DNA from: a bacterium
Lineage (GTDB): Bacteria; Patescibacteriota; Dojkabacteria; SC72
DNA length: 64,000 nucleotides
Reading direction: 5' to 3'
Assembly (NCBI GenBank): GCA_021463465.1
Contig: JAJTYH010000003.1
Coordinates: 147,549 to 211,548 of the forward strand
Below, piece by piece: positions 4,118 to 46,833 of this stretch. The position numbers and the translations under genes were made by a program. Every line of letters starts with the position of its first letter. The stretch's first letter is position 1. The notes beneath the pieces are model-generated. The model searched no databases. It worked only from the letters and a program-made list of their open reading frames with translations, and was not told the DNA's origin.

Positions 4118-4612
4118 TTATCCGAAGATGAAGGCGCGTAGGCGACCGTAGCCTGCGCGCTTTGCTATATGTTTCCAATTAGTTTCGAGCCAGAGATTCG
4201 AAGCCGCATACATTTTCCCAAGACCTCTTTTTTCTAACTCTTTTTCCACGACCCTTCCTTTGTGAGGATGTTCGACGGAACGCTGAAGTGGAGAGTGAAA
4301 ACCGTGAGTGTAATGAACAAGCTCATGAGCAATTGTCGCGTCAATAAGCATCTCAGGCACATCTTCACTTTTAAAAAGAGAAGTTATAGTAATTATTGAG
4401 ATTCTTTTATCATCTACAATTCTATATTCATCAAGCTTCTTTAACATCAAAGTCTTGATTTTGGCTCTAGGTGAAGCCCATTTGATTGATCCTAACTGTC
4501 TGGATGAACCTTTACCGAATTTGATTAGAACGAGGTTATGTCTAGGGACGTCGGTAAAGAAGTTTTCCCATATGAAATAGAGTCTTTGTTCGAGGTATAC
4601 GTTATCTCTCAT
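4118..4612 (-). CDS. DUF45/YgjP-like zinc metallohydrolase
   Basis: HEXXH-containing motif 'AHELVHYTHGFHSP', typical of the YgjP/DUF45 (SprT-like) family. 164 aa. Confidence 0.6.
   Translation of the reverse strand: MRDNVYLEQRLYFIWENFFTDVPRHNLVLIKFGKGSSRQLGSIKWASPRAKIKTLMLKKLDEYRIVDDKRISIITITSLFKSEDVPEMLIDATIAHELVHYTHGFHSPLQRSVEHPHKGRVVEKELEKRGLGKMYAASNLWLETNWKHIAKRAGYGRLRAFIFG
4133..4163. terminator. GC-rich hairpin (GGCGCGTAGGC / GCCTGCGCGC, one G-U wobble) followed by TTT, directly after the groEL stop
   Basis: Seen in the sequence. It overlaps the last codons of the convergent minus-strand DUF45 gene, so it could be a bidirectional terminator sitting in the 3' end of that CDS. Confidence 0.3.
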
Positions 4613-6361
4613 ATGATATTATATATCCAATATATGATACTGCCTAAACTTCGTGTTCTCACAAGAACTTTAAAATTTGTATACGATGGTAGAAAATGGT
4701 CAGTTTTGTCGAGAGAATTACTGTTAATCGTTGGTGTGTTTATAGATCTGTACAGCATTACTTTGTGGGGTAAATTCATTGATACTACTGGAGAATTTTT
4801 TCTAACTGGAACCAAGTTTATCCTTAAAGATTACTTTATATCTGATTCTTTTTTCTATTTAGCGTTGGCAACTGGATGTTGGTTGCTTTCTTTCTCAATA
4901 ATAAGACTGAGGAACTTTTTGGCAGAGGATATTCATCAGCACTTAAACTTTGCTGCCAGAACAGTCTTCTTTGAGAAGATTGCTAAATCTAATCTCGAAG
5001 ATATTGAATCCAAGGATTTTCGGGACCTTATGACGTTCACTGACTATTTTGGTCCTGCTAATCTGTGGAGTACTTACTCCACATTTACCTTAATTGTTAA
5101 AAATTTGGTGACAGGTATATCGGCATTAGCCATTCTGTCAAGCAATGTTGGACTTTGGTCACTTGCCATTGTTGTCATGGTTCTTCCTGAGACAGTTTTT
5201 GGCTATTTAGGGAGAAAGAAGATCAAGCATTATCACGATAAAAAAGTTGAGAGAATGAAGTGGACAAACTATGTAGAGAATCTGATGACACGAATTAATA
5301 CATTCCAGGAGATGAAAGTTGACGGAACTTTCACAAGTATTAAAAAAGAATACGGAGAAAAAACCTTTAGCTCTATGAGTGACGTTTTAGATTTAAATAA
5401 ACACCTGTATATCGATACGACATTCTTTTCTGTAATAGGAAAAGTATTGTTTACAATCTTTACTATCCTTATGCTCGCAGTGGCTATGGCTAAAAGTTTC
5501 ACCATTGGTTCTTTTAAAGCCATGTACGATTATTCATTAACCATCTACATGTCTTTTTATGATGTGTTTGATATGTCTTTTAACATCTTTAATTTTCTTG
5601 AATACAACGATAAGTTTTTTAAATTCAATGACTTCCAAGGTTTTGGAGATGCTGTTCATGGAGAGAAGACCTTGGGTACGAATGTACCTTCCCTGGAATT
5701 TAAGGGCATGGATTTTGAATATCCGGATGGTACTGATAAGGTGTTGGAGAATCTTAACATGAGAATTGAGCCAGGTGAAAAGGTTATGATTATAGGGGAT
5801 GATGGCAGTGGTAAATCAACCCTTATTAAAATCCTGTGTGGATTGTACAGAGTTATCGTAGGAGATTTCGAGGTTGGCGGTTACTCTATTCGAGAATTGG
5901 GCAGGGGACAACTGAAACATAAAGTATCGGTAGTTTTTCAAGATTTCGTGAACTACAACACGTCACTCAAAAAAAATATAACGATGTCCTCAGAGGGTAG
6001 TAGAATTAATCACGCCGTTTATGAGCAGGTACTTAAAATTTCTGGAGTTGATAAATTAATGAAGCATTTTGATATCTCTGAAAATCAAATTTTGGGGAAA
6101 TATACCGCAAGAGGAAAAGATGTATCTCCGGGTTTCTGGCAGCGTTTGGCTATTGCTCGTATGCTGTACCGTAATCGCCAAATCTTTATTCTTGACGAGC
6201 CTTTTACCTACATTGACGATGGGGAAGAAGATAGGATTCTTAAAGAGCTAATGGATTTTGTTGGTGACAAAACTGTTATATACATTACTAGGGATAGTCG
6301 TCATAAAAAATACTTTGATAAAATATATCACTTGAAAAAAGGTAAACTTTTTAAAATCTAA
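4613..6361 (+). CDS. ABC transporter, fused permease-ATPase half-transporter (type I exporter) with degenerate signature and H-loop. The start is uncertain.
   Basis: Walker A 'GDDGSGKST'. Signature degenerated to 'VSPGFWQ'. Walker B 'IFILDEP'. The H-loop position is 'ITRDS', with no His. An N-terminal multi-TM domain is present. The longest ORF begins at 4538 but would overlap the divergent DUF45 gene. In-frame ATGs at 4613 and 4634 are more plausible starts. Confidence 0.7.
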   Translation: MILYIQYMILPKLRVLTRTLKFVYDGRKWSVLSRELLLIVGVFIDLYSITLWGKFIDTTGEFFLTGTKFILKDYFISDSFFYLALATGCWLLSFSIIRLRNFLAEDIHQHLNFAARTVFFEKIAKSNLEDIESKDFRDLMTFTDYFGPANLWSTYSTFTLIVKNLVTGISALAILSSNVGLWSLAIVVMVLPETVFGYLGRKKIKHYHDKKVERMKWTNYVENLMTRINTFQEMKVDGTFTSIKKEYGEKTFSSMSDVLDLNKHLYIDTTFFSVIGKVLFTIFTILMLAVAMAKSFTIGSFKAMYDYSLTIYMSFYDVFDMSFNIFNFLEYNDKFFKFNDFQGFGDAVHGEKTLGTNVPSLEFKGMDFEYPDGTDKVLENLNMRIEPGEKVMIIGDDGSGKSTLIKILCGLYRVIVGDFEVGGYSIRELGRGQLKHKVSVVFQDFVNYNTSLKKNITMSSEGSRINHAVYEQVLKISGVDKLMKHFDISENQILGKYTARGKDVSPGFWQRLAIARMLYRNRQIFILDEPFTYIDDGEEDRILKELMDFVGDKTVIYITRDSRHKKYFDKIYHLKKGKLFKI

Positions 6362-7006
6362 ATGGTTGAACTTCTGCTTTGGGGAATAGTTATAGCGGGG
6401 TATCTGTTAGCCCTTTATCTTGTCTACCGTACAATTGTTTTTGGACTTTCACTTTCGCGCGAGGCACCTTTTGTGCCTTCAAACCTCAAACTTGCAACTG
6501 AAGCACTTAGACTACTAGGTATTAAGAAGGGTGATCAATTTATTGATATAGGGTCAGGTGTTGGAATGGTGGTTTTTCTTGCTTCGAAATTGAGCAAAGG
6601 AGTTGCCACATACTCTGGCATTGAGCAGAGTAAGGCTTTAACTCTTCAGTCTAAAATTAAGCAGGTTTTTTCTCGCTATAATAAGCAAATCTCCTTTGTA
6701 AATGGTGATGCTCTGGTATATAATTACACAGGTTTTAACGAAGTGTATCTGTATATGACTACTCATATGACAGACATGTTGATGCATAACCTATCCAAAC
6801 AACTTCCCGCAAACGCCAAGGTTGTTTCAGTGGCATTTGGTATGGGTTCTTTTATGAAATCTCATAAAGTAGAGGTTCATAAGGTTGTTATGGGAGACAA
6901 GGAGCATAACTTGTATTTATGGAAAAATGGAAATTCTGTACGGAAAACCGGTAGCAGACAGAATACTAAGCCGTATAAGTCAAGAAATAAAAAGTCTAGA
7001 AATTAA
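6362..7006 (+). CDS. Membrane-anchored class I SAM-dependent methyltransferase-like protein
   Basis: N-terminal TM helix, then the motif 'IDIGSGVGMVVFLA' (the GxGxG motif I of Rossmann-fold methyltransferases). Confidence 0.45.
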   Translation: MVELLLWGIVIAGYLLALYLVYRTIVFGLSLSREAPFVPSNLKLATEALRLLGIKKGDQFIDIGSGVGMVVFLASKLSKGVATYSGIEQSKALTLQSKIKQVFSRYNKQISFVNGDALVYNYTGFNEVYLYMTTHMTDMLMHNLSKQLPANAKVVSVAFGMGSFMKSHKVEVHKVVMGDKEHNLYLWKNGNSVRKTGSRQNTKPYKSRNKKSRN

Positions 7007-7766
7007 ACCTCAGTTAGACATTGTTCTTGTAGGTTCAAATCTTCCTAGCGAGAAATATGTGAAAATGAAGATGGAAAAAGCTGCCTTTATAGGTATTGAA
7101 ACTGTACTTCATCGTTTTGAAGAGGATGTCACTGAAGAAGTCTTAATAGATGAAGTGCTCCGGCTAAATGAAGCTCCTGAAGTTAATGGAATCATGGTCC
7201 AGATGCCTCTACCAAAAGGAATAGAAGTTTCAAGAGTGTTGGAAATAATTCGTCCAGTTAAGGATGTTGACGGTTTGAATATCCCATCCTTAAAAGAAAG
7301 CTTAACTGTTCCGGCGGAGAGGCACTTTCCTGCAACTGCAAAAGCTGTGATGGAGATTCTCACTTATTACAATGTGCCATTGAAAGGTAAGGTAGTTGTG
7401 GTTTTGGGATCAAGTTTGTATGTTGGTCGTCCAGTTGCAGCGGGTTTGTTATACGAGGGAGCGGAAGTAAATCTATGTGACATAAATACTGGTAATAACG
7501 ACTCTAAAATCCGTAGCGCAGATGTAGTGGTAAGTTGTACGGGAGTGTATGGAATCGTATCTGAAAAGAATGCTAAACCAGGAAGCGTGATTATTGATGT
7601 GGGAATAAACTTTATAGAGGGTAAGATGGTTGGTGATGTTGACTACACTTCGGTGACAGGTCTTTGTGCTGCGATAAGCCCTGTTCCTGGAGGAGTTGGT
7701 CCTGTAACAATCGCTTGCCTACTCTCTAATACTTTAAAGGCATATAAACAGCAGAATGAGCTTTGA
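6927..7766 (+). CDS. folD: Bifunctional methylenetetrahydrofolate dehydrogenase/cyclohydrolase FolD
   Basis: 'MEILYGKPVADRI...KMKMEKAAFIGIETVLHRFEEDVTEEVLIDEVLRLNEAPEVNGIMVQMPLP' and a C-terminal 'PVPGGVGPVT'. I chose the start at the internal Met at 6927. The ORF track begins at 6885. Confidence 0.85.
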   Translation: MEILYGKPVADRILSRISQEIKSLEIKPQLDIVLVGSNLPSEKYVKMKMEKAAFIGIETVLHRFEEDVTEEVLIDEVLRLNEAPEVNGIMVQMPLPKGIEVSRVLEIIRPVKDVDGLNIPSLKESLTVPAERHFPATAKAVMEILTYYNVPLKGKVVVVLGSSLYVGRPVAAGLLYEGAEVNLCDINTGNNDSKIRSADVVVSCTGVYGIVSEKNAKPGSVIIDVGINFIEGKMVGDVDYTSVTGLCAAISPVPGGVGPVTIACLLSNTLKAYKQQNEL

Positions 7767-8955
7767 TATAAATCAAATAAAAAATCAGTTCCCTTTATTA
7801 AAAGGCAATCCCGACCTAGTCTATTTGGATAGCGCCTCAACTACGCACAAACCCAAAGTGGTACTCAATGCTATGAACGATTTTTATATCAGTTCAAATG
7901 CGAATGTTCACAGAGGATTGTACGACTTATCTCATAAAGCCGATACATCCTGGATTGATGCACACAGAAAAGTAGCTCAGTTTATTAATGCCTTGCCTGA
8001 GGAAGTTTTCTTCGTAAAGAATGCAACTGAAGGTATAAACTGGTTTGCTCAAACTGCCAGAGATCAAATATTAAAAGAAGGTGATGTAGTTGTAATTACG
8101 CAGATGGAACACCACAGCAATATCCTTCCATGGTCAGCTATTCAACAGAGATTAGATATTCAACTAGAAAGACTAATGCTAAATAAAGATAGTAGAGTGG
8201 ATCTGGATCATCTAACTGAACTGTTTGGAAAGTATGGAGAAAGAATTAAGATTATATCGTTAGCCCATATGTCCAATGTGTTAGGTGTAACTAACGATGT
8301 TAAGTCTATTACTAAACTTGCTCGTAAGTATGGAGCAATGGTTCTGGTGGATGGGACTCAGAGTGTTGCACACCTGTCAGTAGATGTTAAAGAGTTAGAT
8401 TGTGATATTTTTGTATTTTCAGGTCACAAGATGTATGGACCTACAGGTATAGGAGTAGTATATGGGAAAAGAAATATATTAGAAAATTTAGATCCTGTAT
8501 GGCAGGGTGGTGAGATGGTAGATAATGTTTCGGAAAATGTAGTGTTCAAAAATTTACCATGGAAGTTTGAGGCAGGTACTCCGAATATTGCTGGTGGTAT
8601 CGGATTGGCTAAAGCTGCAGAGTGGTTAAATTCAATTGAAGGACGCTTTGAATATGAGAAAGAACTCTCAAACTATCTTTACTTAGCAATATCAAAGCAT
8701 CCTTCTTCAGTGAAAGTGTTATCACAACCTTCTTCAATTTTATCTTTTGTTATGGATGGTGTTCATGCTCACGATATTGCAAGTGAGTTTAACGAATTAG
8801 GAATTTGCATACGATCTGGATACCACTGCGCTCAACCTCTTCATGAAAAGTTGAAAATTAAAGGTAGTGCCCGAGTTAGCTTAGGGATATACAACACCAA
8901 AGGCGATGTCGACAAGTTTATTCAAGGCTTAGATCAGTTAAAGAGATATGAATAA
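7756..8955 (+). CDS. sufS: Cysteine desulfurase SufS (class V aminotransferase)
   Basis: 'LVYLDSASTTHKP', 'NANVHRGLYDLSHKA', PLP-lysine region 'FSGHKMYGPTGIGVVYG', active-site Cys in 'RSGYHCAQPL'. Confidence 0.85.
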   Translation: MSFDINQIKNQFPLLKGNPDLVYLDSASTTHKPKVVLNAMNDFYISSNANVHRGLYDLSHKADTSWIDAHRKVAQFINALPEEVFFVKNATEGINWFAQTARDQILKEGDVVVITQMEHHSNILPWSAIQQRLDIQLERLMLNKDSRVDLDHLTELFGKYGERIKIISLAHMSNVLGVTNDVKSITKLARKYGAMVLVDGTQSVAHLSVDVKELDCDIFVFSGHKMYGPTGIGVVYGKRNILENLDPVWQGGEMVDNVSENVVFKNLPWKFEAGTPNIAGGIGLAKAAEWLNSIEGRFEYEKELSNYLYLAISKHPSSVKVLSQPSSILSFVMDGVHAHDIASEFNELGICIRSGYHCAQPLHEKLKIKGSARVSLGIYNTKGDVDKFIQGLDQLKRYE

Positions 8956-9304
8956 AGATTTGGTAATAAGCAGGTATAAAAATCCTAAAAATTTCGGCGT
9001 AATTAAGGACTCTTTAGTGGGCGAATCGGTTAACTACTCTTGTGGAGACGAGATTAAGGTTTCAATTAAACAGACAGATGGTGAAGTAAAAGAGTGCAAA
9101 TTCAATGGAACGGGTTGTTCAATATGTATTGCTTCTACTGATTTGCTACTTGATTCTATTAAAAATAAAAAAACTAATGAGGTCCTTAACCTTCCAAATT
9201 CTTATATATTCAACCTGATTGGGATGGAATCCGAGAGTGCTCGCTGGCGCTGCGCAACTCTGGGACTGGAAGCTGTTAAGAGCGCTCTTCATAGTGTAAA
9301 ATAA
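8948..9304 (+). CDS. sufU: Fe-S cluster scaffold SufU/IscU-like (NifU N-terminal domain)
   Basis: Conserved Cys and Asp ligands: 'CGDEIKVSI', 'GTGCSICIAS', 'RWRCATLGLEA'. It overlaps the sufS stop. Confidence 0.7.
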   Translation: MNKDLVISRYKNPKNFGVIKDSLVGESVNYSCGDEIKVSIKQTDGEVKECKFNGTGCSICIASTDLLLDSIKNKKTNEVLNLPNSYIFNLIGMESESARWRCATLGLEAVKSALHSVK

Positions 9305-9312
9305 GCGTTGTT

Positions 9313-9879
9313 ATGATATTTTTAGATATTGAAACTAAAGCTGTAGAGAACTTTGACTTCAGTAAACTGAATGAGTTTCAAATTTCATATACTGGAGTTA
9401 TTGATGATAATGGTAATGAGGTTGATTTTTGGGAAGAGGACATACCTAAACTCAAACCTATTTTAGAGGCAACTGATTGGATTGTTGGTTACAACAGCAT
9501 CAGTTTCGATTTGCCTGTTATTGCCAATTACCTCGGGACGGAAGTAAACGAGTTGCCACAGATTGATTTGATGGTGGCAGTTCATAAACAGATTGGATTT
9601 CGACCTAAGTTAGACGATCTGGTGTCGGCTACTTTGGGTAGGAGCAAAATCGGAAAAGGGCTTGATGCAACTATTTATTGGGCTAATGGGGAACTTGATA
9701 AACTAAGGGAGTACTGTATGGAAGATGTCCGACTGACTCGAGATTTGTATGAATTTGGGAAGAAAAACGGTTATGTGAATTACTATGATAAGCAGGGCTT
9801 CGTTAGGCAAACCAAAGTTGACTGGGAATTAGGTAAGAAAGTGAAAAAACCAGTTGAACAAAACCTCTCACTCTTCTAA
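9313..9879 (+). CDS. Stand-alone DEDDy 3'-5' exonuclease (RNase H-like fold, PolB-exonuclease-related / YprB-like)
   Basis: Exo I 'FLDIET', Exo II 'GYNSISFDLPVI', Exo III 'YCMEDVRLTRDLY'. Confidence 0.6.
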   Translation: MIFLDIETKAVENFDFSKLNEFQISYTGVIDDNGNEVDFWEEDIPKLKPILEATDWIVGYNSISFDLPVIANYLGTEVNELPQIDLMVAVHKQIGFRPKLDDLVSATLGRSKIGKGLDATIYWANGELDKLREYCMEDVRLTRDLYEFGKKNGYVNYYDKQGFVRQTKVDWELGKKVKKPVEQNLSLF

Positions 9880-9888
9880 TATACTTAT

Positions 9889-11022
9889 ATGAATCCAACT
9901 GCCCCTCAAAACTCAACTGCAGATTTCAATTCAGATATTGCATTGATTGAAAATAAGCTTAATGCCGTTAAGCTACCTCAAGAACTTCTAGAATCTACTA
10001 CCAGAACCATTGGAAGACTTAGGCGTATGGCTTCACACGGTAACTTTTCCGCTGAATATGAATCTGTAGATAAGTATGTAGATTGGATCACCCAAGTCCC
10101 ATGGGGCAAACTTACTCAGGATAATTTGGATATTGCGAATGCCAAAAAATTGATGGATAGCTCTCATTACGGTATTGATGTAGTGAAAGACGTAATCCTT
10201 GATTATCTCTCTGTTATGAAATTGCAGATAGATAGCGGGTTTAAAAAACAAGAGATTTCCGGCGATGCAGCTATATTAAGAGGTAACTCTGCTAATGCCC
10301 CTGTAATGCTTTTTGTAGGACTTCAGGGTGTTGGTAAAACCTCTATTGCTAAATCAATCGCTCAAGCAATGGGTCGTAAATTTGTGCGTGTTTCTCTTGG
10401 TGCAATTGGGAGTGTTCAGATTTTGCGAGGACAGTCCAAAGTATTTGCCGACGCTGAACCCGGACAGATTGTGAAAGCACTTATTCGCTCTGGAACTATG
10501 AACCCACTAATTCTACTTGATGAAATCGATAAGGTAAGTGGTAGCGGGGGATTACTTTCGGATGTGATGGCTGCGTTACTTGAGATTCTTGACCCTGAGC
10601 AAAACAGTCACTTCCTTGATCATTATGTAGATTATCCGGTCGATTTGTCACAGGTATTCTTTATTTGTACTGCTAACAACCTTGGAGGACTTTCCGCAGC
10701 ACTCCTTGATCGTATGGAGATCATTAGATTTACCAGTTACACCGATGAGGAAAAGACGATCATTGCTAAGACATACTCCATGCCAAAAGTTTTGAAAAAT
10801 ACTGGACTAAGACCAGACCAGATTGTGATAGAAGAGAGTGTATGGCCAATTCTAGTTAGACCAGTGGGTTTTGATGCTGGTTTGCGTCAGCTGGAACGAA
10901 ATATTGCAACCATGATCAGAAGTGCTGCACGAATGATTGTCGAAGGAACACCTACACCCATTACTATTACTCCTGAGAATGTAAGGAAATTTGTATTGCC
11001 TGATCAGGGCCCTCTTAGTTAG
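9889..11022 (+). CDS. Lon-derived AAA+ ATPase module, lacking the N-terminal LAN domain and the C-terminal Ser-Lys protease domain
   Basis: 'YVDWITQVPW', 'SHYGIDVVKDVILDYLSV', Walker A 'GLQGVGKTSIAKSIAQAMGRKFVRVSLG', 'LLDEIDK', 'ALLEILDPEQNSHFLDHYVDYPVDLSQVFFICTANN', 'LLDRMEII'. All are collinear with the Lon A ATPase core. The ORF stops after the alpha-helical lid (377 aa). Confidence 0.7.
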   Translation: MNPTAPQNSTADFNSDIALIENKLNAVKLPQELLESTTRTIGRLRRMASHGNFSAEYESVDKYVDWITQVPWGKLTQDNLDIANAKKLMDSSHYGIDVVKDVILDYLSVMKLQIDSGFKKQEISGDAAILRGNSANAPVMLFVGLQGVGKTSIAKSIAQAMGRKFVRVSLGAIGSVQILRGQSKVFADAEPGQIVKALIRSGTMNPLILLDEIDKVSGSGGLLSDVMAALLEILDPEQNSHFLDHYVDYPVDLSQVFFICTANNLGGLSAALLDRMEIIRFTSYTDEEKTIIAKTYSMPKVLKNTGLRPDQIVIEESVWPILVRPVGFDAGLRQLERNIATMIRSAARMIVEGTPTPITITPENVRKFVLPDQGPLS

Positions 11023-12860
11023 TTTTGCTTTGTATATCCTTCAGCTTGCTTATGGAATGCCTCAGCATATAGTCCGTCGTGCTTCAAAAGTTCAGCATGA
11101 GATCCTTCCTCTATAATACTACCTTTTTCGAAAACGTATATTTTTTGTGCATTTCTCACAGTAGAGAAACGGTGGGATATAATTATGACACTTTTGTTAT
11201 TAACAAACTCATAAATTCTTTTGAAAATTTTGTACTCTGCCAGAGGGTCAATAGATGCAGTCGGTTCATCAAGAATGAGAATCGGAGAGTCTCGATAGAA
11301 CATCCTAGCTAAGGCTAGCTTCTGCTCCTGCCCACCGGAGAGGTTTACACCGCCCTCGAAGCTCTTTCCCAAAGTGGTATTGTAACCCTCGGGTAAGCTC
11401 ATTATGAATTTATCTGCTTCTCCCAGTTTAGCTGAAGCTTTTACTTGCTGAAGGTTAAATTTCTTGTCGACGCCTAAAGCTATATTTTCAGCAATAGTCA
11501 GTGAATCAAAAACTTTATAGTCTTGGAAAAGTACGCCTATTGCCGTGTAATAACTCTCAAGATTCACCTCTTTGAGGTTTATCCCATTTACCAATATCTC
11601 ACCTTCTGTGGGATCGAACACTCTGAGTAATAATTTAATGAATGTAGTTTTCCCAGCTCCGTTCTCTCCGACAATTGCAATCTCTTCAGTTGGGTTGATT
11701 GTTATACTTAAATTCTTCAAAGCATACGGTTTTGAATTAATATATTTGAAACTTACATCTTTGAATTCAATCTTTGGTGGGAATAATGTGTCGATTCTAA
11801 TATTGCCAGAGATAATCTCATTCTTAATTTCAAAGGCGGCTTTAACTTGTTCTACACCGATGGCTAAATCGAAGAGGTTCGCTACATCATTGGTCAATGA
11901 ATCAAGTTCCTGCATAAATCTATAGGCGGTTGAGGTGAAGAAACCAAATGAACCTACAGTGATTACTCCTTTAAAGAGATCGGTTAAAAAGACAACAGGT
12001 ACAACTATTTGATTAAAACCGTAAAAGAAGGATAAGAATATGTTTGATTTGGCAACATCTTTGTTGATTTTCATTTCATCTCTAACTAAAGGGGTGTTAA
12101 GTCTCTTGAAAATATTTACCAGTGTGGTGTTAGCGAGCATCACTCTGTTCTGGGTCACACTTCGGTGACTGACCAAGTAGTACTTTGCCTCGTTTCTTTT
12201 CATAATATTGTTCAAACTAGCGTTATAGAAATTGTAGAAAATGGAGACGAACCGTATCGACTGAATTGAACTGGGTATACAAGATATCAAAAGATAGATG
12301 GTGAAGATCCAGTTGTGATTGAAGAGTATGGAAAAAGATGTAATCAGCGAAACAAATCCAGTTAATATCTCAAAGAGACTCATTACATAATTACGAATCC
12401 TCCAAATATTCTCTTGTGCCTTTATTATTGCCTTGGAAGATGCAGGGTCTTCAAACCTCGCAATGTCCATCTCTGAGATTTTTATGTGCAATTCCAGCTC
12501 GTAGTTTTTTAGGTATATGACCCGAAACTTCTCGTTTAGATACCTTAACACTTCCGTAAGCACTTTCTGTACAAGCACTAGAAGGGTAATGAAGATTAAG
12601 AGTTGCATATATGGGCGTTGCAAGGAAATTGCTTCGCTGAATGTGGCGCCGCTATTAACCAGTTCAATCAAAAGGTCTAAACCTTTTGCGGAGTAAAAGG
12701 CTAATACTGTTGGAATAACGGCGGAGATAATTGTCAAAACAATAGTCAGAGCGGTATTGCCTACCGAAAGCCTGAAGGTCTCTTTTATCGTCCAGACTGA
12801 AAGTTGAAAGAACTTCTTAATATTTTCTTTGGTGTATTTTGGAGAGTTATTCTTGCTCAT
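11019..12860 (-). CDS. ABC exporter, fused permease-ATPase (MsbA/ABCB-like half-transporter) with canonical motifs
   Basis: Walker A 'GENGAGKTT', signature 'LSGGQEQK', Walker B 'ILILDEPT', H-loop 'IIISHRFS'. N-terminal six-TM domain. Confidence 0.8.
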   Translation of the reverse strand: MSKNNSPKYTKENIKKFFQLSVWTIKETFRLSVGNTALTIVLTIISAVIPTVLAFYSAKGLDLLIELVNSGATFSEAISLQRPYMQLLIFITLLVLVQKVLTEVLRYLNEKFRVIYLKNYELELHIKISEMDIARFEDPASSKAIIKAQENIWRIRNYVMSLFEILTGFVSLITSFSILFNHNWIFTIYLLISCIPSSIQSIRFVSIFYNFYNASLNNIMKRNEAKYYLVSHRSVTQNRVMLANTTLVNIFKRLNTPLVRDEMKINKDVAKSNIFLSFFYGFNQIVVPVVFLTDLFKGVITVGSFGFFTSTAYRFMQELDSLTNDVANLFDLAIGVEQVKAAFEIKNEIISGNIRIDTLFPPKIEFKDVSFKYINSKPYALKNLSITINPTEEIAIVGENGAGKTTFIKLLLRVFDPTEGEILVNGINLKEVNLESYYTAIGVLFQDYKVFDSLTIAENIALGVDKKFNLQQVKASAKLGEADKFIMSLPEGYNTTLGKSFEGGVNLSGGQEQKLALARMFYRDSPILILDEPTASIDPLAEYKIFKRIYEFVNNKSVIIISHRFSTVRNAQKIYVFEKGSIIEEGSHAELLKHDGLYAEAFHKQAEGYTKQN

Positions 12861-20803: not shown

Positions 20804-21361
20804 TTACTTACATAGATAATTCAATGTTTGTGCTGAATCCAAAACAGCTGATTTGGTTTTAGTGATGGTTTCAAAATCTCCAATTAGTTCCATTGCTTGG
20901 GTAGGGTGATCATATTCAAATAAGTCTAATGTAAGCGTGTGATTATCTGGACGAAATATTGCCACTGACAGTTTGTCATCTGCTAGGTTACCAGGTGCAA
21001 TTATTGCCAAGAAATATGGATTACCTTCTTCGTAACAGATTGCTAACCCTCTTACTTTATCGCCTTCGACTAAACTTTGAAGTCTCTTGTTTCGTGTTGA
21101 AGTTTGATTTAAAGCGTCAAGAACAAAATTCATAAAGTATGTTTTTAATGGCTTCATCGAAACAGGCATTAAATCTACTCTGGGGCAGACAAAGATGGTC
21201 TTTTTCTCTTCGCTTACTTTTAATTTAATGGAATTACCCAACCCTAACTCCACATACATAATTATTGACTCGGCAATTTCTTGAATTGGGGTGTTTTTGA
21301 ATACTCTTAAAACTTCAGACTTCTTTGGATGTTCTTTTACAAGAGTTACTCCTGATGTCAT
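20804..21361 (-). CDS. Hypothetical protein
   Basis: 185-aa ORF, overlapping the upstream gene by 4 nt. Confidence 0.4.
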   Translation of the reverse strand: MTSGVTLVKEHPKKSEVLRVFKNTPIQEIAESIIMYVELGLGNSIKLKVSEEKKTIFVCPRVDLMPVSMKPLKTYFMNFVLDALNQTSTRNKRLQSLVEGDKVRGLAICYEEGNPYFLAIIAPGNLADDKLSVAIFRPDNHTLTLDLFEYDHPTQAMELIGDFETITKTKSAVLDSAQTLNYLCK

Positions 21362-21801
21362 AATTCAAGTCCTGGATATTCATCAGCTCTGCAAATCTCG
21401 ACTAAATTATCCCGTGTTCCTTGAATTATTCTTGGATCTGATGTGAACGTGAAGTAGACTGCCTTTAAAGTTCCTTTGTCATTTTGTTCTGGTACTTCGG
21501 AGATAACTGGAGGAATAACATAAAACTCTTCTCTATTAAGAAATTTCGTCAAAATCAATCCTAACGTTTCCTCAACAAATTTTACCTTATCATTAAAGTT
21601 TTCGTCGTTTTGTATTGTTACAGTTATGGATATACTCTTATTCTCATCAAATCTGGTTTCTGTTGTATTTGTAAAGGCTTCTTCACTGACAGTAAGTACA
21701 CCTTCTGAAATTAAATCCTTTAATGTAGTCTCTATTTCGCTTTTGGCTTGAGTGTATCTTTGTTCTAGTGAGTGATTAGGCTCCACATGGTCAGCTACCA
21801 T
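21358..21801 (-). CDS. Hypothetical protein
   Basis: 147-aa acidic ORF, with an ATGA overlap to the downstream gene. Confidence 0.4.
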   Translation of the reverse strand: MVADHVEPNHSLEQRYTQAKSEIETTLKDLISEGVLTVSEEAFTNTTETRFDENKSISITVTIQNDENFNDKVKFVEETLGLILTKFLNREEFYVIPPVISEVPEQNDKGTLKAVYFTFTSDPRIIQGTRDNLVEICRADEYPGLEL

Positions 21802-21857
21802 ATAATAAGGGTGAATATATTATAGGGTGTTATTTTACTACTTTAAGTGGCAAAAAT

Positions 21858-22415
21858 CTATTTTTGCACTATAGTAACCTCAACATTTTCGTTGAAGCGT
21901 AAGGGGGTAGAAGTATCGAACTTCAAATACATAATATCTTTAGTTCTGTCGGGGATCCTTATATTGGCGACGTTTGTTATCCCATTCTCATCCTGTATGA
22001 GATACTCTTTCTCACGGTAAATAAGGTAAAGAGGAATATTAGTTCGGTTTGAACTACCGCCAGTGACTTCAAGGTTCATTGCGCTTTCGTAATTATTGGA
22101 AAGTTGAAGTATTGGTTTGGAGTAGCTTCCGATGTCGTGTTTAATCATCTGTGCTTCATACTTGCTAACACCTTCACTTGGGAAGCTGATTCGTTCGTCT
22201 TTGAGGAAATCATGGACTCCGCCAACCATTACGACTGAAACATCTTTCTTACTTTCAACTCCGAGTACATTGTTTACCTGATTGGAACGAGGGGAAAGGT
22301 TTACAACCGTGAGAGCAGGGAGTACGAAGACAGCAAGGAGTAAAAAAAGGCCCACAGGGTCAAGGAATTTACCGAGTTTGTTGTATACCCTTTTGAATTC
22401 TCTACTAGCCATCAT
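21858..22415 (-). CDS. Hypothetical membrane-anchored extracytoplasmic protein
   Basis: N-terminal TM helix (LFLLLAVFVLPALTVV) followed by a soluble domain. Confidence 0.4.
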   Translation of the reverse strand: MMASREFKRVYNKLGKFLDPVGLFLLLAVFVLPALTVVNLSPRSNQVNNVLGVESKKDVSVVMVGGVHDFLKDERISFPSEGVSKYEAQMIKHDIGSYSKPILQLSNNYESAMNLEVTGGSSNRTNIPLYLIYREKEYLIQDENGITNVANIRIPDRTKDIMYLKFDTSTPLRFNENVEVTIVQK

Positions 22416-22963
22416 AGATATCTGTTGCTCTCCTCTGGGTATATTCTATCAGTTTCTGACTCAAATGTCTTAAGCAAACCCCAGGTTGAAAGTAGTGCGA
22501 GTGCTCCTCCTAGGATACCCACCCAGGAATAAGTCTGCATATTAACGCTGCTTGCGATTGTTACACCGGCAATTATCCAAAGAAAAACTGTCCAAATTAG
22601 CATATTTACCAAGTTGCTTTCTTGGCTTGTGACCCATTTCAAGATGTTTAGTCTGGTCAATTTGACGACAATTCTTGGATTGCTTTGTGCGCTTTTGAAA
22701 AGTGTAAGACGAATGAGCATGTAAAAGGTCGGTAGTGCTATCACAAGCAAAGTGATAAGGTTGGAAAATGAATTTACAAAAAGAGCTGATTGAATGTCAG
22801 TTAAATAAAGTTGAATAGTGAAGATGGAAGTAACATCATTAGTTACAAAGAAATTATTCCCGAGATAGGAAATGAGGAAAAAGACCGAAAGAAACTTACC
22901 AGTCACAAGCAGTGAAGCTGGCAAGATTGCACTTTTAAGCGCTTTTCTTAGCAGTTTCGACAT
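22412..22963 (-). CDS. Hypothetical polytopic membrane protein
   Basis: At least four hydrophobic helices. Its start overlaps the rpsT stop. Confidence 0.4.
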   Translation of the reverse strand: MSKLLRKALKSAILPASLLVTGKFLSVFFLISYLGNNFFVTNDVTSIFTIQLYLTDIQSALFVNSFSNLITLLVIALPTFYMLIRLTLFKSAQSNPRIVVKLTRLNILKWVTSQESNLVNMLIWTVFLWIIAGVTIASSVNMQTYSWVGILGGALALLSTWGLLKTFESETDRIYPEESNRYL

Positions 22964-23234
22964 TGGCGGCAGTAATTAGTTTGTTTAACTTTTTAGTTAA
23001 TCTCGAAATAGTTCGACCCGTGGATTTCTTGTTGAGTATATTTCGCTGAGAAGCTTTGCCAAGTACTTTGGCGACCTTAGGAAGAGCTTCTTTAGCCTTC
23101 TCAACATTGTTAGCCACAATGTACGTGTTGAAAGATTTAACAGATTTCTTCACTCGGTTTCGAACTCTATCGTTGAAAAGAGTGCGTCGCTGCGTTCGTC
23201 TTATATCTTTTTTAGAAGATGCGAGATTTGCCAT
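22935..23234 (-). CDS. rpsT: 30S ribosomal protein S20
   Basis: 'MANLASSKKDIRRTQRRTLFNDRVRNRVKKSVK' has S20-like start and composition. I chose the Met at 23234 rather than the ORF-track start at 23246. Confidence 0.8.
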   Translation of the reverse strand: MANLASSKKDIRRTQRRTLFNDRVRNRVKKSVKSFNTYIVANNVEKAKEALPKVAKVLGKASQRNILNKKSTGRTISRLTKKLNKLITAANVETAKKSA

Positions 23235-23325
23235 TTTTACAAACAAAATTTAAGAATGATTCTGAGCCGATTATATAGTTAAATTAATGGTTTGTAAACC
23301 AGTTGCTATGTGTTAAACTGAAAAT

Positions 23326-23751
23326 ATGAGGTTTGAAACCAAAGTCGCTATCCTTTTCGCAGTTTTATCTTTTTCCCTAATCTCTGTAGCCGTCTGGTTG
23401 AGGATGCAAAATGCCCAACAAGAGCTACGTAAAAGCGATTCTCAGGTGCAAGGGACTGCAGATTACTCACTTTATCCTTCAATCACCAACATTGCTCCCA
23501 ATATTGCGGTTGTGGATCAATTATACCGTTATGACATGGTTATTGTAGACGCAGACAGTGCACCGATAAATATAAGGGTGAAGATGTTGGAAGGACCAGC
23601 CTGGCTTAATATTGATAAATTTACCTTGAGTGGCGTACCTTCCTTTCCTCAAAGTGAGGCAAGTAAGGTTGTACTTGAAGTTAGCGACGGGGAGCATGTA
23701 ATATATTCCACATTCTATATCGTAATAATGCTTCCTGATGAAAACGAATAA
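23326..23751 (+). CDS. Small secreted protein with a putative Ig-like (cadherin-like) domain
   Basis: Signal/TM at the N-terminus. 'PAWLNIDKFTLSGVPS' resembles the 'putative Ig' domain signature (L..GL.LD..TG.ISGTP). Confidence 0.35.
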   Translation: MRFETKVAILFAVLSFSLISVAVWLRMQNAQQELRKSDSQVQGTADYSLYPSITNIAPNIAVVDQLYRYDMVIVDADSAPINIRVKMLEGPAWLNIDKFTLSGVPSFPQSEASKVVLEVSDGEHVIYSTFYIVIMLPDENE

Positions 23752-24127
23752 ACTGTTGTTTATAGGTATCCTTGTAACTGCGGTTATTACATCTGGACTC
23801 TTTGCTTACTATTTCGTTTATTTACCGAATAAAACTACTAGTAATGTAGGGGGGTGTAGTCCTACTAAATTCCGCCAGGAAAAGAATGGAGAAGAGTACT
23901 TTCTCTTTTGGACAACTCTTGATGAATGCACAGGATATGTCAAATATGGCAATACAGCGGAAGCCTTTCCTTATCTGGCAGTCGATCAGCAGGGAGTGGT
24001 CAAAGTCAGGGAGCATGAAGTAAAACTCTCAGGAATAACCAAAGGCAGCACGTACTATTTTGTAATCTTTTCGAACGAGAAAAGTTTTGGGAATGAAGGC
24101 AGACCTCTAATCCTTAGTTTCGAATAG
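23738..24127 (+). CDS. Small TM-anchored protein with an FN3/purple-acid-phosphatase-N-like domain
   Basis: TM anchor, then 'YFLFWTTLDECTGYVKYG...HEVKLSGITKGSTYYFVIFS'. The same W-T-[DT] / H-x-V / Y-x-F pattern occurs at the N-termini of the 1150-aa and 612-aa proteins further downstream. Confidence 0.4.
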   Translation: MKTNKLLFIGILVTAVITSGLFAYYFVYLPNKTTSNVGGCSPTKFRQEKNGEEYFLFWTTLDECTGYVKYGNTAEAFPYLAVDQQGVVKVREHEVKLSGITKGSTYYFVIFSNEKSFGNEGRPLILSFE

Positions 24128-25970
24128 TTTTATTCTTTTCTAGTTTCTCTATAAACTTCTCTTCGAAGTATCTCTGTGGATCATTTGATTTGAGACCAAT
24201 ATTTCTTACAGTCTTTCCAAGAGTTGAATTGATTAGCTTATTGCTCACATTTAATCCGCTTTGTGAGAAGTAGAAGAAGAGTCCAAGTAATATGGTGAAT
24301 ACCGCGAGTGCTACTCGTGAAATAGTACTGTCAAATAATGCTGTCTCAGGTGAAGTACAGTTTTGAGACACTGAAACAGAGACACTACTTCTTAGGCTAT
24401 CATCATCTTTTGGTGTATTTACTGGGATTGCAATAGCCTCATTTAGGTTACTGCCTGATAGAGCCGAGGAACTAACATTAGCGCTGAAACGTATTGTAAG
24501 GCTATCTCCCGAATCTATTGTCCAACCTCCATTAGTTGAAAAGGTAATTTGCTGAGTACTTCCAACAGTTTCTACATCAATAAAATCGCTATCATCGACC
24601 AATGAACCGTTAATATAAGTAGAATTGGTCTTGTAAGTAAATCCTAACGGCAGTTTATCTTCTATACGTGTAACTCCTTCATCATCTGAATCGGTATTTT
24701 GAATTGAGATTGTGTAAGTGAGTGAGTTACTACGTTCAACACAAGCGACCGAAGCGGTTTTATCTAGTGTGAAATCAGAAGTTTCTGTTTCTTCGTTTGG
24801 TTTTTCCTCTTGAGGGTTAGTTGGCTCCTCTTCTTCTGGTTCTTCTTCGTTAGGCTCCTCAGGTGTCTCTTCTACAGGATTCTTTGGCCCTTCTTGTATA
24901 GCTGGAATCTCAAATTCTCCAATACAGTTATCTGAATTAATCAAACTACCATCGACATATACTTGCGAAGAAATATTGAGGGTACCCATTTCATCATCGA
25001 TGACTGAGAACGATTTTCCGTCAATGAAATTGGAAGCAGAGTATAGGAAGGATTTGGTAAGGACTAGAGATGAACCCGACATTTGAGACTTAATGTTCTT
25101 AGTAGTTAAAGTCTCGCCAGTTTTACCCACCGTAAACTTCACAGAGAGTGTATTAGTAGGGGTTACTGATGCCATACTTAGGTTGATTTCGTTAACTTTT
25201 GGTTTCTGATTAGTATCGTTGACAACTTCAGCTCTTAATTCAGTGCAAGTTGGAGCGTTAGGCTTGTTTACTGTCAATACGCGGTTACAAGCTTCTGAGG
25301 TAATCTGTGCACCAGTCGTTGATTGACCGAAGGCTTGAATGCTCAGGGTATCAGAAGTTGAATAATCTGGGATTGTTGTAGTGACAAGATATTCTTTGTC
25401 GACTCCGGTTCCACTAGATGTAGCTTGGTCCTTTTGCATTTCTGTCTTAGCGCCGTTAACTACAAATGAGAATCCAGAATAGAAGTCCTGGTCAGGGGTT
25501 GTAATGTTTTTTGGAGTAGTGAATTTGGCTTTGATTGTAAGTTTTTGTCCTGGTTCGACCTTATTGGCATATCGCTTCTGTGCGGTGTCTTCGATAGAAA
25601 TATCGACACATCCTGGGTTGATTGCAAAATCATCAACACGGCAGGCAAGGGTGGTTTGGTTCTCCTCCTTAAGGCTTGAGGCTGTTCTTAGGTCACAGCT
25701 TGCCGAACAATTGTTGTTGCCTTGTATTGTACCTGTCTGGAATTCATAGGCCATCTTAGGATTAGCATCAGCACAGCTTTTGACTGTGTCAGTAGCTGCT
25801 ACAAAATAACAACCACAACCTTGCGATGCATTGGTATTTTGAGGTGAAATATCGTTGATTTTAAGATAGAAATATCCGGTTATCAAACTGGCTACCGCAA
25901 GTACTGCTGTAAATACCAATATAAGCGTTACTGTTTTTTTTGTACGTTTAGCTGCTGCTAAAGGATCCAT
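24114..25970 (-). CDS. Surface protein with a DUF11 ('conserved repeat') domain, an acidic linker and a C-terminal SPETAL-TM-basic tail
   Basis: N-terminal signal anchor. Acidic linker 'EETPEEPNEEEPEEEEPTNPQEEKPNEE'. The DUF11-like segment 'DKLPLGFTY' matches the D.LP.GL.FV signature. C-terminus 'SPETALFDSTISRVALAVFTILLGLFFYF' followed by Lys-rich residues. Confidence 0.5.
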   Translation of the reverse strand: MDPLAAAKRTKKTVTLILVFTAVLAVASLITGYFYLKINDISPQNTNASQGCGCYFVAATDTVKSCADANPKMAYEFQTGTIQGNNNCSASCDLRTASSLKEENQTTLACRVDDFAINPGCVDISIEDTAQKRYANKVEPGQKLTIKAKFTTPKNITTPDQDFYSGFSFVVNGAKTEMQKDQATSSGTGVDKEYLVTTTIPDYSTSDTLSIQAFGQSTTGAQITSEACNRVLTVNKPNAPTCTELRAEVVNDTNQKPKVNEINLSMASVTPTNTLSVKFTVGKTGETLTTKNIKSQMSGSSLVLTKSFLYSASNFIDGKSFSVIDDEMGTLNISSQVYVDGSLINSDNCIGEFEIPAIQEGPKNPVEETPEEPNEEEPEEEEPTNPQEEKPNEETETSDFTLDKTASVACVERSNSLTYTISIQNTDSDDEGVTRIEDKLPLGFTYKTNSTYINGSLVDDSDFIDVETVGSTQQITFSTNGGWTIDSGDSLTIRFSANVSSSALSGSNLNEAIAIPVNTPKDDDSLRSSVSVSVSQNCTSPETALFDSTISRVALAVFTILLGLFFYFSQSGLNVSNKLINSTLGKTVRNIGLKSNDPQRYFEEKFIEKLEKNKTIRN

Positions 25971-44709: not shown

Positions 44710-46833
44710 ATGTTGTTTAACGAAAAAGTACACGAGTTTGAGATCGAAGGAAGAAAAGTTTCTTTCTCAAGTGGCAAATATGCCAGAAGATCTTCCGGCT
44801 CAGTGTTTGCACGTATGGGTGAGACTGCTGTTTTAGTCAATGTTGACTCCCAAGCACCTAAAGGCGAAGGTGATTTCTTTCCAATGACAGTAGAGTATGT
44901 AGAAAAACTCTTTGCTGCAGGTAAGATATCTTCTTCTAAATTTGTAAAACGGGAGAGATTTCCAACCGATGCCGCAATATTACGAGCTAGAATGATCGAT
45001 CGTTCATTCAGATCGCGATTTCCAGCTGATTATCGAAATGAAGTAACCATAACAATTACAGTTCTCTCTTACGATTCACAGAACGACCCATTGATTCTGG
45101 CTATTAACGCAGCTTCTGCGGCTATTATGCTTTCAAAGGTTCCTTTTGATGGACCTATTGCTGGTGTCCGAATCGGACTTAAAGATGGCAATCCAGTAGC
45201 TAAGTATGAAGTCATTGATGAGACTTCGGAAGAAGATCAGATGAACTATGTCGCTTCTGGTGACGGAAAACTTTTCACTATGGTCGATGCTGGTTGTCAT
45301 GAAGTACCTGAAAATCAGGTAGTTGAAGGTATGAAATACGGATTGGAACTCATGAATCCATGGATGGAGGCTCAACAGAAGTTTATTGATATGTTCGAAG
45401 TTCAAAAAGAAGAATATACATCTCATGCTGTTCCAGAAGAACTTTTGGCTCAGATGAAAACTTTCTTGGGTGATGAGGTGAAGCGCAATGCAACTTCTGA
45501 TAAACCAGAGCTGACAACCGAGTCGTTGGAAAAGGTTTACAAAGAGTACGAGGGAAAGTACAGCAAAGTCACAATTAGTGAAGCCTATTACAAGCTTCTT
45601 AAGAAAGAAGTACGCGCTATGATTTTGGATCGAAAAGAGCGAATTGATGGCCGCAAAGTAGATGAGATCAGAGAATTGGATATGGAAGTTGGTGTATTGC
45701 CGAGGGTACACGGTAGTTCTTTATTTACTCGTGGTATGACTCAGTCGTTAACAGTTGCAACTTTGGGCAATACTCGTGATCAACGATTGGTTGAAGATAT
45801 TGCTGGAGAGGAACTTAAATCCTATATGCATTTTTACGATGCAATGCCTTTCTCTTTAGGTGAGGCTGGGAGAATTAAGTGGATTCCAGGTCGAAGAGAG
45901 ACCGGCCATAGCGCTTTAGCTGAAAAAGCTTTAGCACCAGTAGTTCCATCTTTAGATGAGTTTCCTTACACAGTGTTGTTGGTAAGCGAAGTCTTATCTC
46001 AGAACGGTTCAAGCTCAATGGCTGCAACTTGTGCATCAACGCTTGCTCTTATGGATGCAGGTGTGCCTATCAAGCGACCCGTTGCAGGAATTGCGATGGG
46101 AGTTATTACGGACGATGAAGGCGAGAAGTTCCAAATCCTAACAGATATAAGAGATGTAGAAGATTTCTATGGAGACATGGACTTCAAGGTTACAGGAACT
46201 ACTAAAGGTATTACTGCTGTACAGATGGATAACAAGGCTGCGGGTCTTCCTATTGAAGTGTTTGAACAAGCAATTGCTCAGGCTAGACAAGCTCGAGAAT
46301 TTATCTTGGAAAAAATTGAGAAGGTAATTGCATCTCCACGAGCTGAAGTTTCTAAATATGCACCTAAAGTATTAGTAGTTAAGATTCCAGTTGAAAAGAT
46401 AGGGGAATTGATTGGTCCGGGTGGAAAGAATATAAAAGAACTCAGTGAGGGTACCGGTTGCCAGATTAATGTTGAAGATGATGGTACTGTTCAGATCTTT
46501 GGAGACGATATGGAGTCGATTGAGAAAGCTAATAAGTATGTTTCAGGCTTAGCATTTGTTCCTGAAGTAGGCGGTGTTTACAAAGGAGTTGTTGATGGAG
46601 TGATGGAATATGGTGCATTCGTTGAGATTGCTCCTAACGTGTCAGGTCTAGTTCATGTCTCTGAAATGTCTAACGAATTTGTTAAAGATGTTCGTGATTT
46701 TGTGACTGAAGGACAAGAAGTTGAAGTTAAGATCTTGGATATTGGTAGAGATGGTAAGATCAAGATGAGTATGAAAGCTGTAAAAGGCGAAGCTACTGAT
46801 AGTGGAGAAGATAGACCTCGAAGGAGAGATTAA
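44710..46833 (+). CDS. pnp: Polyribonucleotide nucleotidyltransferase (PNPase)
   Basis: Two RNase PH domains, then a KH domain ('VKIPVEKIGELIGPGGKNIKEL') and an S1 domain ('GVYKGVVDGVMEYGAFVEI'). 707 aa. Confidence 0.92.
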   Translation: MLFNEKVHEFEIEGRKVSFSSGKYARRSSGSVFARMGETAVLVNVDSQAPKGEGDFFPMTVEYVEKLFAAGKISSSKFVKRERFPTDAAILRARMIDRSFRSRFPADYRNEVTITITVLSYDSQNDPLILAINAASAAIMLSKVPFDGPIAGVRIGLKDGNPVAKYEVIDETSEEDQMNYVASGDGKLFTMVDAGCHEVPENQVVEGMKYGLELMNPWMEAQQKFIDMFEVQKEEYTSHAVPEELLAQMKTFLGDEVKRNATSDKPELTTESLEKVYKEYEGKYSKVTISEAYYKLLKKEVRAMILDRKERIDGRKVDEIRELDMEVGVLPRVHGSSLFTRGMTQSLTVATLGNTRDQRLVEDIAGEELKSYMHFYDAMPFSLGEAGRIKWIPGRRETGHSALAEKALAPVVPSLDEFPYTVLLVSEVLSQNGSSSMAATCASTLALMDAGVPIKRPVAGIAMGVITDDEGEKFQILTDIRDVEDFYGDMDFKVTGTTKGITAVQMDNKAAGLPIEVFEQAIAQARQAREFILEKIEKVIASPRAEVSKYAPKVLVVKIPVEKIGELIGPGGKNIKELSEGTGCQINVEDDGTVQIFGDDMESIEKANKYVSGLAFVPEVGGVYKGVVDGVMEYGAFVEIAPNVSGLVHVSEMSNEFVKDVRDFVTEGQEVEVKILDIGRDGKIKMSMKAVKGEATDSGEDRPRRRD

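Follow-up and report, generated by a model that had tools for sequence, protein, structure and literature searches.

The 64,000-nucleotide stretch of Dojkabacteria DNA analyzed here (hereafter the window) encodes a 377-residue AAA+ ATPase that is a LonA-derived module without a LON N-domain and without an S16 protease domain. The explanation that we favor, with a probability of about 0.6, is that this protein belongs to a Lon-derived family of single origin whose members may act as stand-alone remodelers of other proteins. The structural and evolutionary part of this statement very probably holds, and the functional part is offered tentatively. The ATPase gene follows a predicted exonuclease gene after a gap of 9 nt, and the pair is made up as follows.

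9313-9879, + strand: exonuclease open reading frame (ORF), 188 aa, predicted stand-alone DEDDy 3'-5' exonuclease, a neighbor rather than a partner of the ATPase
9889-11022, + strand: Lon-type AAA+ ATPase ORF, 377 aa, with Pfam domains AAA and Lon_lid only and a partial match to TIGR00763

The identity of the ATPase is confirmed by domain, sequence and structure comparisons. In Pfam at E<=0.01 it matches AAA (1.6e-21) and Lon_lid (1.4e-8, residues 303-354), and neither LON_substr_bdg (PF02190) nor Lon_C (PF05362) is found. The NCBIfam model TIGR00763 ('lon') covers it at model positions 251-567 of 795 only, with a score of 343 bits, under the curated equivalog cutoff of 608 bits. Its top match in the PDB (phmmer) is Bacillus subtilis LonA (3m6a, 7e-73), collinear over residues 17-369, and the best 50 Foldseek matches listed for its AlphaFold2 (AF2) monomer model (mean predicted local distance difference test score, pLDDT, 72.8) are all Lon structures. 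From these matches, the protein comprises a three-helix bundle, an AAA+ alpha/beta subdomain and a lid. The ORF terminates just past the lid, at a stop codon that a convergent gene overlaps.

An earlier interpretation made from the nucleotide letters alone (the sequence-only reading) had described the protein as a Lon-derived AAA+ ATPase without an N-terminal substrate-binding domain and without the Ser-Lys protease. This description is borne out by Pfam, where PF05362 is indeed absent, and by TIGR00763, the 3m6a alignment and Foldseek. The motifs quoted in its support as collinear with LonA were located at YVDWITQVPW, residues 63-72; GLQGVGKTS, 144-152; LILLDEIDK, 207-215; and LLDRMEII, 272-279. 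Its expectation that no frameshift correction would restore a protease also stands, since the convergent gene overlaps the stop codon and tblastn found no downstream remnant. Compared with LonA, the ATPase lacks the N-domain and the protease and falls under the equivalog cutoff, and its family also departs from the pore-loop signature. By these features it should not be named a Lon protease, plainly Lon-derived though it is. Its elements are listed below.

9916-10095, + strand: three-helix bundle, residues ~10-69 (AF2 helices H10-26, H31-49 and H56-69), aligned to BsLon 10-60 and LonA ~250-310
10225-10290, + strand: variable insertion, residues 113-134, ahead of the first ATPase strand and specific to Dojkabacteria forms
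10318-10344, + strand: Walker A, GLQGVGKTS, residues 144-152
10423-10467, + strand: remodeled pore-loop 1, LRGQSKVFADAEPGQ, residues 179-193
10507-10533, + strand: Walker B, LILLDEIDK, residues 207-215, with D211 and E212 invariant
10534-10566, + strand: remodeled pore-loop 2 region, residues 216-226
10666-10725, + strand: region of sensor-1 (N263) and the Arg finger (R275), CTANN...LLDRMEII
10795-10950, + strand: Lon lid (alpha) subdomain with sensor-2 R333
11002-11019, + strand: C-terminal tail, DQGPLS-COOH, at the extreme C-terminus

By alignment, the three-helix bundle is the homolog of the final portion of the LonA N-region. The region of the insertion is a gap in canonical Lon and in the Microgenomates forms, and is modeled with pLDDT <50 over residues 119-137.

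The window protein has many relatives of the same architecture. A family scan with one genome per species gave 80 loci, 59 of them of the type found in the candidate phyla radiation (CPR), which together with the window make 60 CPR sequences: 51 of Dojkabacteria type (window included) and 9 from other CPR bacteria. These ORFs are 349-472 aa long, and 60/60 end at one alignment position with zero C-terminal extension; in the complete canonical LonA proteins of that scan, the N-terminus is longer by 155-366 aa and the C-terminus by 185-206 aa. Identity to the window ATPase is 58-72% for Dojkabacteria-type loci, 51% for one group, 42-49% for Shapirobacteria and Woesebacteria, and 44% for a 938-kb chromosome. 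At E<=1e-5, a protein search with the ATPase gave 5,528 proteins, canonical Lon among them. Among the matches listed (the best 120 of the 5,528) are more than 100 relatives at 65-81% identity, none with a Lon_C domain, and those named by source are labeled Candidatus Dojkabacteria or WS6. An exhaustive search of 50%-identity representatives yielded about a dozen more short clusters, of 343-548 aa.

In a bootstrapped neighbor-joining tree of 27 short forms and 47 canonical LonA proteins, the short forms make up one clan in 200/200 bootstraps, and this is unchanged when the pore-loop columns are removed. Remnants of the missing parts were sought by tblastn (E<=1) with the N-terminal and protease portions of 10 canonical Lons as queries; neither the ±6 kb around each of the 59 related loci nor the 64-kb window contained any, the overlap with the lid end being the only match. 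The alignments and the tree make it very probable that the short ATPases are a single-origin family, present in Dojkabacteria, Shapirobacteria, Woesebacteria and some other Patescibacteria (CPR). Because the short forms retain the last part of the LonA N-region, a single ancient double truncation of a full-length Lon would account for them. Across the Dojkabacteria loci, the 58-72% identity of the ATPase exceeds that of folD (35-43%) and sufS (39-48%) at the same loci, which argues for strong purifying selection on the ATPase.

No published description of a short Lon family was found in the searchable full-text literature. Database names for its members are 'AAA family ATPase' or, misleadingly, 'ATP-dependent Lon protease'. 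Some Dojkabacteria homologs (P0034, P0052, P0017, P0037, P0047, P0081 and P0088) bear disordered N-terminal extensions of 130-250 aa that are rich in Q, P, S and N, and some of these extensions hold Arg/Asn-rich basic stretches, for example RRRNRNRGRNRNQNHNRN. The 938-kb chromosome mentioned above (OZ246401.1, locus L056) is titled 'uncultured Gammaproteobacteria' and carries a CPR-type short Lon, so that its title looks taxonomically wrong. The same applies to many CAZ* and CAY* loci titled 'uncultured Candidatus Saccharibacteria', in which the gene order is of Dojkabacteria type and the ATPase 58-70% identical to that of the window.

The ATP-handling residues are strictly conserved. In Walker A, G144, G147, G149, K150 and T151 are invariant in 59 aligned short forms, with L145 standing where canonical LonA has Pro. 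T261, N263, D274 and R275, in the region of sensor-1 and the Arg finger, are invariant in both short and canonical forms, as is sensor-2 R333. The surrounding lid motif reads RP[VL]G[FY]DAG in the short family where the canonical sequence is YTREAG. The alignments show that the short family retains every residue that would be needed for ATP binding and hydrolysis, the inter-subunit Arg finger included.

The pore loops have been remodeled. The canonical pore-loop 1 motif, RGHRRTY[IV]G[AS][ML]PG, is invariant in 17 + 47 LonA sequences; its ungapped equivalent in the short family is LRGxx[KR]xxxD[AS]EPGQ, in which three central positions, including those of the canonical Tyr-Ile, are hypervariable (VFA in the window; AFL, HEI, YSI, SLP, LRP, VQP and others elsewhere). 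At the Tyr position an aromatic residue is seen in 8/50 sequences from Dojkabacteria and 1/9 from other CPR bacteria, against 17/17 + 47/47 canonical LonA proteins, and an aromatic residue anywhere inside the four-residue stretch is found in 34/50 and 1/9, respectively. The window ATPase has Phe-Ala at the canonical Tyr-Ile positions. In pore-loop 2, Dojkabacteria have LL[NS]D[VI] for the canonical [FY]RGDP, of which Microgenomates have lost a part, the aromatic residue having become Leu or disappeared. In Meiothermus taiwanensis LonA, the substrate is gripped through Y397 of pore-loop 1 and W431 of pore-loop 2 (PMC8580320). The short family has also acquired invariant features of its own, namely the acidic residues D188 and E190 at the loop base, and W319.

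A further such feature is the C-terminal tail. D372, Q373 and G374 are invariant, and DQGPLS is identical or has one substitution in 50/50 Dojkabacteria-type sequences, while the 20 residues ahead of it are variable. Among the Microgenomates forms, 4/5 end in LP[TQ]W. The DQGPLS tail sits precisely where the linker to the protease domain begins in LonA.

We propose that the short Lon ATPase would assemble into a ring, hydrolyze ATP, and remodel or hold client proteins without proteolysis, as a stand-alone remodeler or chaperone. Client engagement would differ from the Tyr-mediated threading of Lon. Because the protease, the N-terminal recognition domain and both canonical pore-loop motifs are lost, clients would no longer be threaded into a degradation chamber; ring assembly of the protease-less form is assumed because the Arg finger is conserved. 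There is a precedent in LONP1, whose chaperone-like action requires ATPase activity and can dispense with protease activity (PMC8368198). Judged from conserved motifs and this analogy, a stand-alone, proteolysis-independent, ATP-driven protein-remodeling ring has somewhat less than an even chance of being the correct description.

Several points weigh against this proposal. The window protein retains Phe at the pore-loop Tyr position; given this residue and the 34/50 Dojkabacteria sequences with an aromatic within one residue, some threading ability may survive. Hexamer formation in canonical Lon owes much to the protease domain. The negative result for an S16 protease is limited to the ±6-kb flanks and the 64-kb window. 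Lastly, fixation of the C-terminal tail may point to a partner that docks there, and a purely stand-alone model would leave the tail unexplained.

The gene immediately upstream was described in the sequence-only reading as a stand-alone DEDDy 3'-5' exonuclease of PolB type, and its identity as a DEDDy exonuclease of polymerase-exonuclease fold is upheld by its catalytic residues and structural matches. D5, E7, D66, Y134 and D138 are invariant in 33 homologs, as is N61, and the protein satisfies the DEDDy motifs Exo I DxE, Exo II Nx4D and Exo III Yx3D on an RNase H-like fold. The top folds matched by its AF2 model (pLDDT 93) are the exonuclease domains of archaeal family-B polymerases and T7 polymerase, and its PHROG matches are polymerase exonuclease subunits. 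From these residues and the model, the 188-aa protein is credibly an intact DEDDy 3'-5' exonuclease in a predicted active form. Its family comprises 86 proteins, of which the named members are nearly all from Dojkabacteria, and its closest homologs share contigs with the ATPase homologs nearest to that of the window.

The exonuclease gene keeps company with Fe-S assembly genes (window 9313-9879; L081 6001-6576; L083/L084 6001-6579). In Dojkabacteria, it follows sufS-sufU even where the Lon ATPase is 150 kb off, and a Doudnabacteria homolog adjoins a divergent fur-sufB-sufD-sufS-sufU cluster and a FAD/NAD oxidoreductase gene. The exonuclease is not an obvious Fe-S protein, because it has a single Cys. 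A homolog of 32% identity (L087 5001-5606) lies on a phage-like contig that also encodes a terminase, a primase/VapE-like protein and a Dam methylase, and this suggests that the family is mobile. Other distant homologs lie beside RmuC, or have a C-terminal region showing a faint WYL match.

Gene neighborhoods were compared by clustering all ORFs of the 60 CPR sequences in the ±6 kb around each ATPase. The exonuclease lies <=6 kb from the ATPase at 6/51 Dojkabacteria-type loci (window included) and at 0/9 other CPR loci, and in 3 of those 6 loci a melibiase-like (glycosidase) gene stands between the two. CP129478.1, a complete genome of 1.04 Mb, has the exonuclease behind sufS-sufU at 391-404 kb and the ATPase by a VirB4/TraC/PrgI cluster at 539-557 kb; the two genes are ~150 kb apart, each having stayed with its own block after rearrangement. 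They adjoin in the window because two separately conserved gene blocks abut here. The exonuclease is a chance neighbor of the ATPase, with which it makes up no two-gene system, and is an unrelated, lineage-specific and probably mobile gene travelling with sufS-sufU. The suggestion in the sequence-only reading that exonuclease and Lon ATPase might constitute a system is contradicted by these counts, interruptions and distances. For the family as a whole the pair is not conserved, its adjacency being kept inside the subclade of the window (e.g., L086).

The typical order in Dojkabacteria is ABC transporter, folD, glyA, thyX-like, dcd, sufS, sometimes a reverse-strand surface-protein gene, and the ATPase, followed on the 3' side by a convergent small gene, VirB4, two accessory genes and recF. 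The VirB4 block is the most persistent neighbor of the ATPase, adjoining it in nearly all Dojkabacteria loci with enough downstream sequence. The Microgenomates order is rpsO-pnp-ATPase-RNase J; at L053, L055, L057 and L058 the ATPase gene lies within a nusA-infB-...-rpsO-pnp-ATPase-RNase J string on one strand, with small gaps in L055 and L058. In another short-form lineage pnp is 4.5 kb upstream of the ATPase, and at L056 the ATPase is divergent from groES-groEL. No neighbor is common to the whole family and no peptidase gene recurs in any lineage, a single M23 peptidase being seen in one genome only. The absence of a family-wide neighbor fits a self-contained housekeeping protein. Heat-shock control gained no support, as CIRCE elements (<=4 mismatches) were not found near any short-lon gene. 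A defense system was considered and rejected: PADLOC gave no match for the exonuclease, and for the ATPase generic AAA matches only (DolB 1.8e-12, TRIP13 1e-3).

These neighborhoods and the conserved tail give rise to other explanations of the ATPase, which have to be weighed against the stand-alone remodeler. It is unlikely that a split protease is at hand, with the short ATPase serving as the unfoldase half of a two-gene Lon, or as a ClpX-like partner of a peptidase encoded elsewhere on which the tail would dock. Proteasomal ATPases dock by HbYX tails, and a fixed extreme C-terminus in both the Dojkabacteria and Microgenomates forms, placed at the start point of the LonA protease linker on a protein with intact ATPase motifs, speaks for this reading. 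However, no protease-domain gene or remnant was found <=6 kb from the 59 loci or in the 64-kb window, no peptidase is a recurrent neighbor in any lineage, and both pore loops, with which every known AAA+ protease threads its substrate, lack the invariant aromatic motifs. A role in nucleic-acid or nucleoprotein metabolism, together with the DEDDy exonuclease or more broadly with PNPase and RNase J, is quite unlikely. It would draw on the 9-nt gap without a terminator and the adjacency kept in the window subclade, on the Microgenomates ATPase lying between pnp and RNase J with gaps of 5-63 nt (L055, L058), on the upstream pnp of the other lineage, and on the basic patches in the disordered N-terminal extensions of some homologs; the Lon alpha subdomain binds DNA in some species. 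Against this stand the sparse co-occurrence, interruption and separation of the two genes described above, and an exonuclease family of 86 proteins compared with the 5,528 of the ATPase search (canonical Lon included). The net charge of the core is slightly negative, the same as in canonical Lon, and as basicity in the short forms does not exceed the canonical level, nucleic-acid binding gains no support from charge; the newly fixed pore residues D188 and E190 are in fact acidic. Nuclease neighbors are weak evidence because information-processing genes are so common in small CPR genomes.

Persistent adjacency to VirB4, which outlasts even the rearrangement that parted the ATPase from sufS in CP129478.1, could indicate an accessory ATPase or chaperone of the convergent VirB4/TraC/PrgI type-IV-secretion-like apparatus. 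We regard this as very improbable, given that the convergent orientation precludes co-transcription and that the link is absent from the neighborhoods of Microgenomates and other short-form lineages. Hardly credible is a decaying, functionless lon remnant. Two of three domains are gone and the pore loops are variable, but the ORF ends at the same point in 60/60 sequences, no ATPase motif varies, and identity stands at 58-72% compared with ~40% for the metabolic neighbors; this conservation of the ATPase effectively refutes the idea. A more elaborate possibility, which we consider rather unlikely, is a CPR-specific, essential-like Lon descendant that has given up proteolysis and the Tyr-based threading of polypeptides, and whose acidic pore (D188/E190) and docking tail serve a new client class or a partner such as a peptidase, PNPase/RNase J or the VirB4 apparatus. 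If true, the acidic pore and docking tail would define a new functional type of Lon-derived AAA+ machine.

The genes that flank the pair in the window are the following.

6885-9304, + strand: folD, sufS and sufU (Pfam matches), upstream of the exonuclease-ATPase pair
11019-12860, - strand: ABC transporter gene, convergent and overlapping the ATPase stop codon
12870-17075, - strand: genes for a small protein, a VirB4/TraG-type ATPase, and TraC-like and PrgI-like proteins, a type-IV-secretion-like block (Pfam and synteny)

folD ends at 7766, sufS spans 7756-8955 and sufU 8948-9304, so that the genes of the string overlap or sit 8 nt apart; the ORF positions, the 9-nt gap and the placement of the pair at the end of a tightly packed folD-sufS-sufU string are as the sequence-only reading had them. 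A terminator scan of the gene string found no terminator-like sites between sufU, the exonuclease and the ATPase. Promoter and terminator counts were no higher than the shuffled expectation, and only the terminator-free gene string is informative. The listed folD ORF (6885-7766) opens at TTG and overlaps the upstream methyltransferase gene by 122 nt; its true start is probably the ATG at 6927 (MEILYGKP...), 14 codons into the listed ORF. In the lineage of the window, folD abuts sufS directly, and sufU and the exonuclease have been added after sufS; in most Dojkabacteria (L007-L046 compared), folD and sufS are separated by glyA, dcd and a large thyX-like gene. The pnp gene of the window is at 44710-46833, 34 kb from the ATPase.

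Elsewhere in the window, a 164-aa ORF at 4118-4612 (-) with no Pfam match overlaps the start of an ABC-transporter ORF at 4538-6361 (+) by 75 nt, and the start of one or the other is probably wrong. Informative Pfam matches are also lacking for the ORF at 24114-25970 (-), 618 aa, and for a run of 130-185-aa ORFs in 20804-24127. The sole Pfam match of the 1150-aa ORF at 48649-52101 (+) is to a purple-acid-phosphatase N-terminal/fn3 domain. No tRNA or tmRNA genes were found across the whole 64-kb window, and GC skew is positive over its entire length (1-64000).

Lon is the textbook example of a single chain that unites an ATPase with a protease, and one whole bacterial lineage appears to have retained only the ATPase. 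The short family thus constitutes a natural experiment on what the Lon ATPase may do beyond feeding a protease, whether chaperone action, remodeling or nucleic-acid-linked roles, and bears on protein quality control in CPR bacteria with tiny genomes. The label 'ATP-dependent Lon protease' would wrongly credit these genomes with Lon proteolysis.

The closest known relatives are the canonical LonA proteins (E. coli Lon, B. subtilis LonA 3m6a, M. taiwanensis LonA and human LONP1), which are ~40-45% identical and collinear with the short ATPase over its whole span of three-helix bundle, AAA+ alpha/beta subdomain and lid, and share its Walker A and B, sensor-1, Arg finger and sensor-2. They differ in possessing a LON N-domain and an S16 Ser-Lys protease, and their RGHRRTY[IV]G[AS]MPG, [FYW]RGDP and YTREAG motifs are all replaced in the short family, which adds a conserved C-terminal tail. 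ClpX, HslU and ClpB, of the HCLR clade, are single-gene AAA+ rings related to Lon that act alone or dock onto separately encoded peptidases. Their pore loops, unlike those of the short family, remain aromatic, and defined elements, the IGF loop among them, serve for docking; the similarity of the ATPase to ClpA/ClpB models is marginal. The exonuclease shares its fold and five catalytic residues with the DnaQ-like DEDDy domains of family-B and family-A polymerases (PF10108, PF13482, PF01612), with a Foldseek TM of about 0.6 to archaeal PolB exonuclease domains; no close solved homolog was found by sequence. It differs from these domains in standing alone, at 188 aa, with no polymerase domain.

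All Lons are stated in a review to be single chains with both ATPase and protease domains (PMC9569914), and this statement is contradicted by the short ATPase family. Functionally, the nearest likeness is to LONP1 and Pim1, whose chaperone activity prevents aggregation through ATP hydrolysis and not proteolysis (PMC8368198), and could persist in a protease-less Lon. There, however, the activity is housed in a full-length enzyme with canonical pore loops. LonC of M. taiwanensis is likewise a natural Lon relative that has dropped one activity, its pore loops being missing and ATP-powered unfolding absent (PMC3391209; PMC8580320). LonC is the mirror image of the CPR family: in LonC the protease is kept and the AAA-like domain is dead, whereas the CPR family combines a motif-complete ATPase with no protease.

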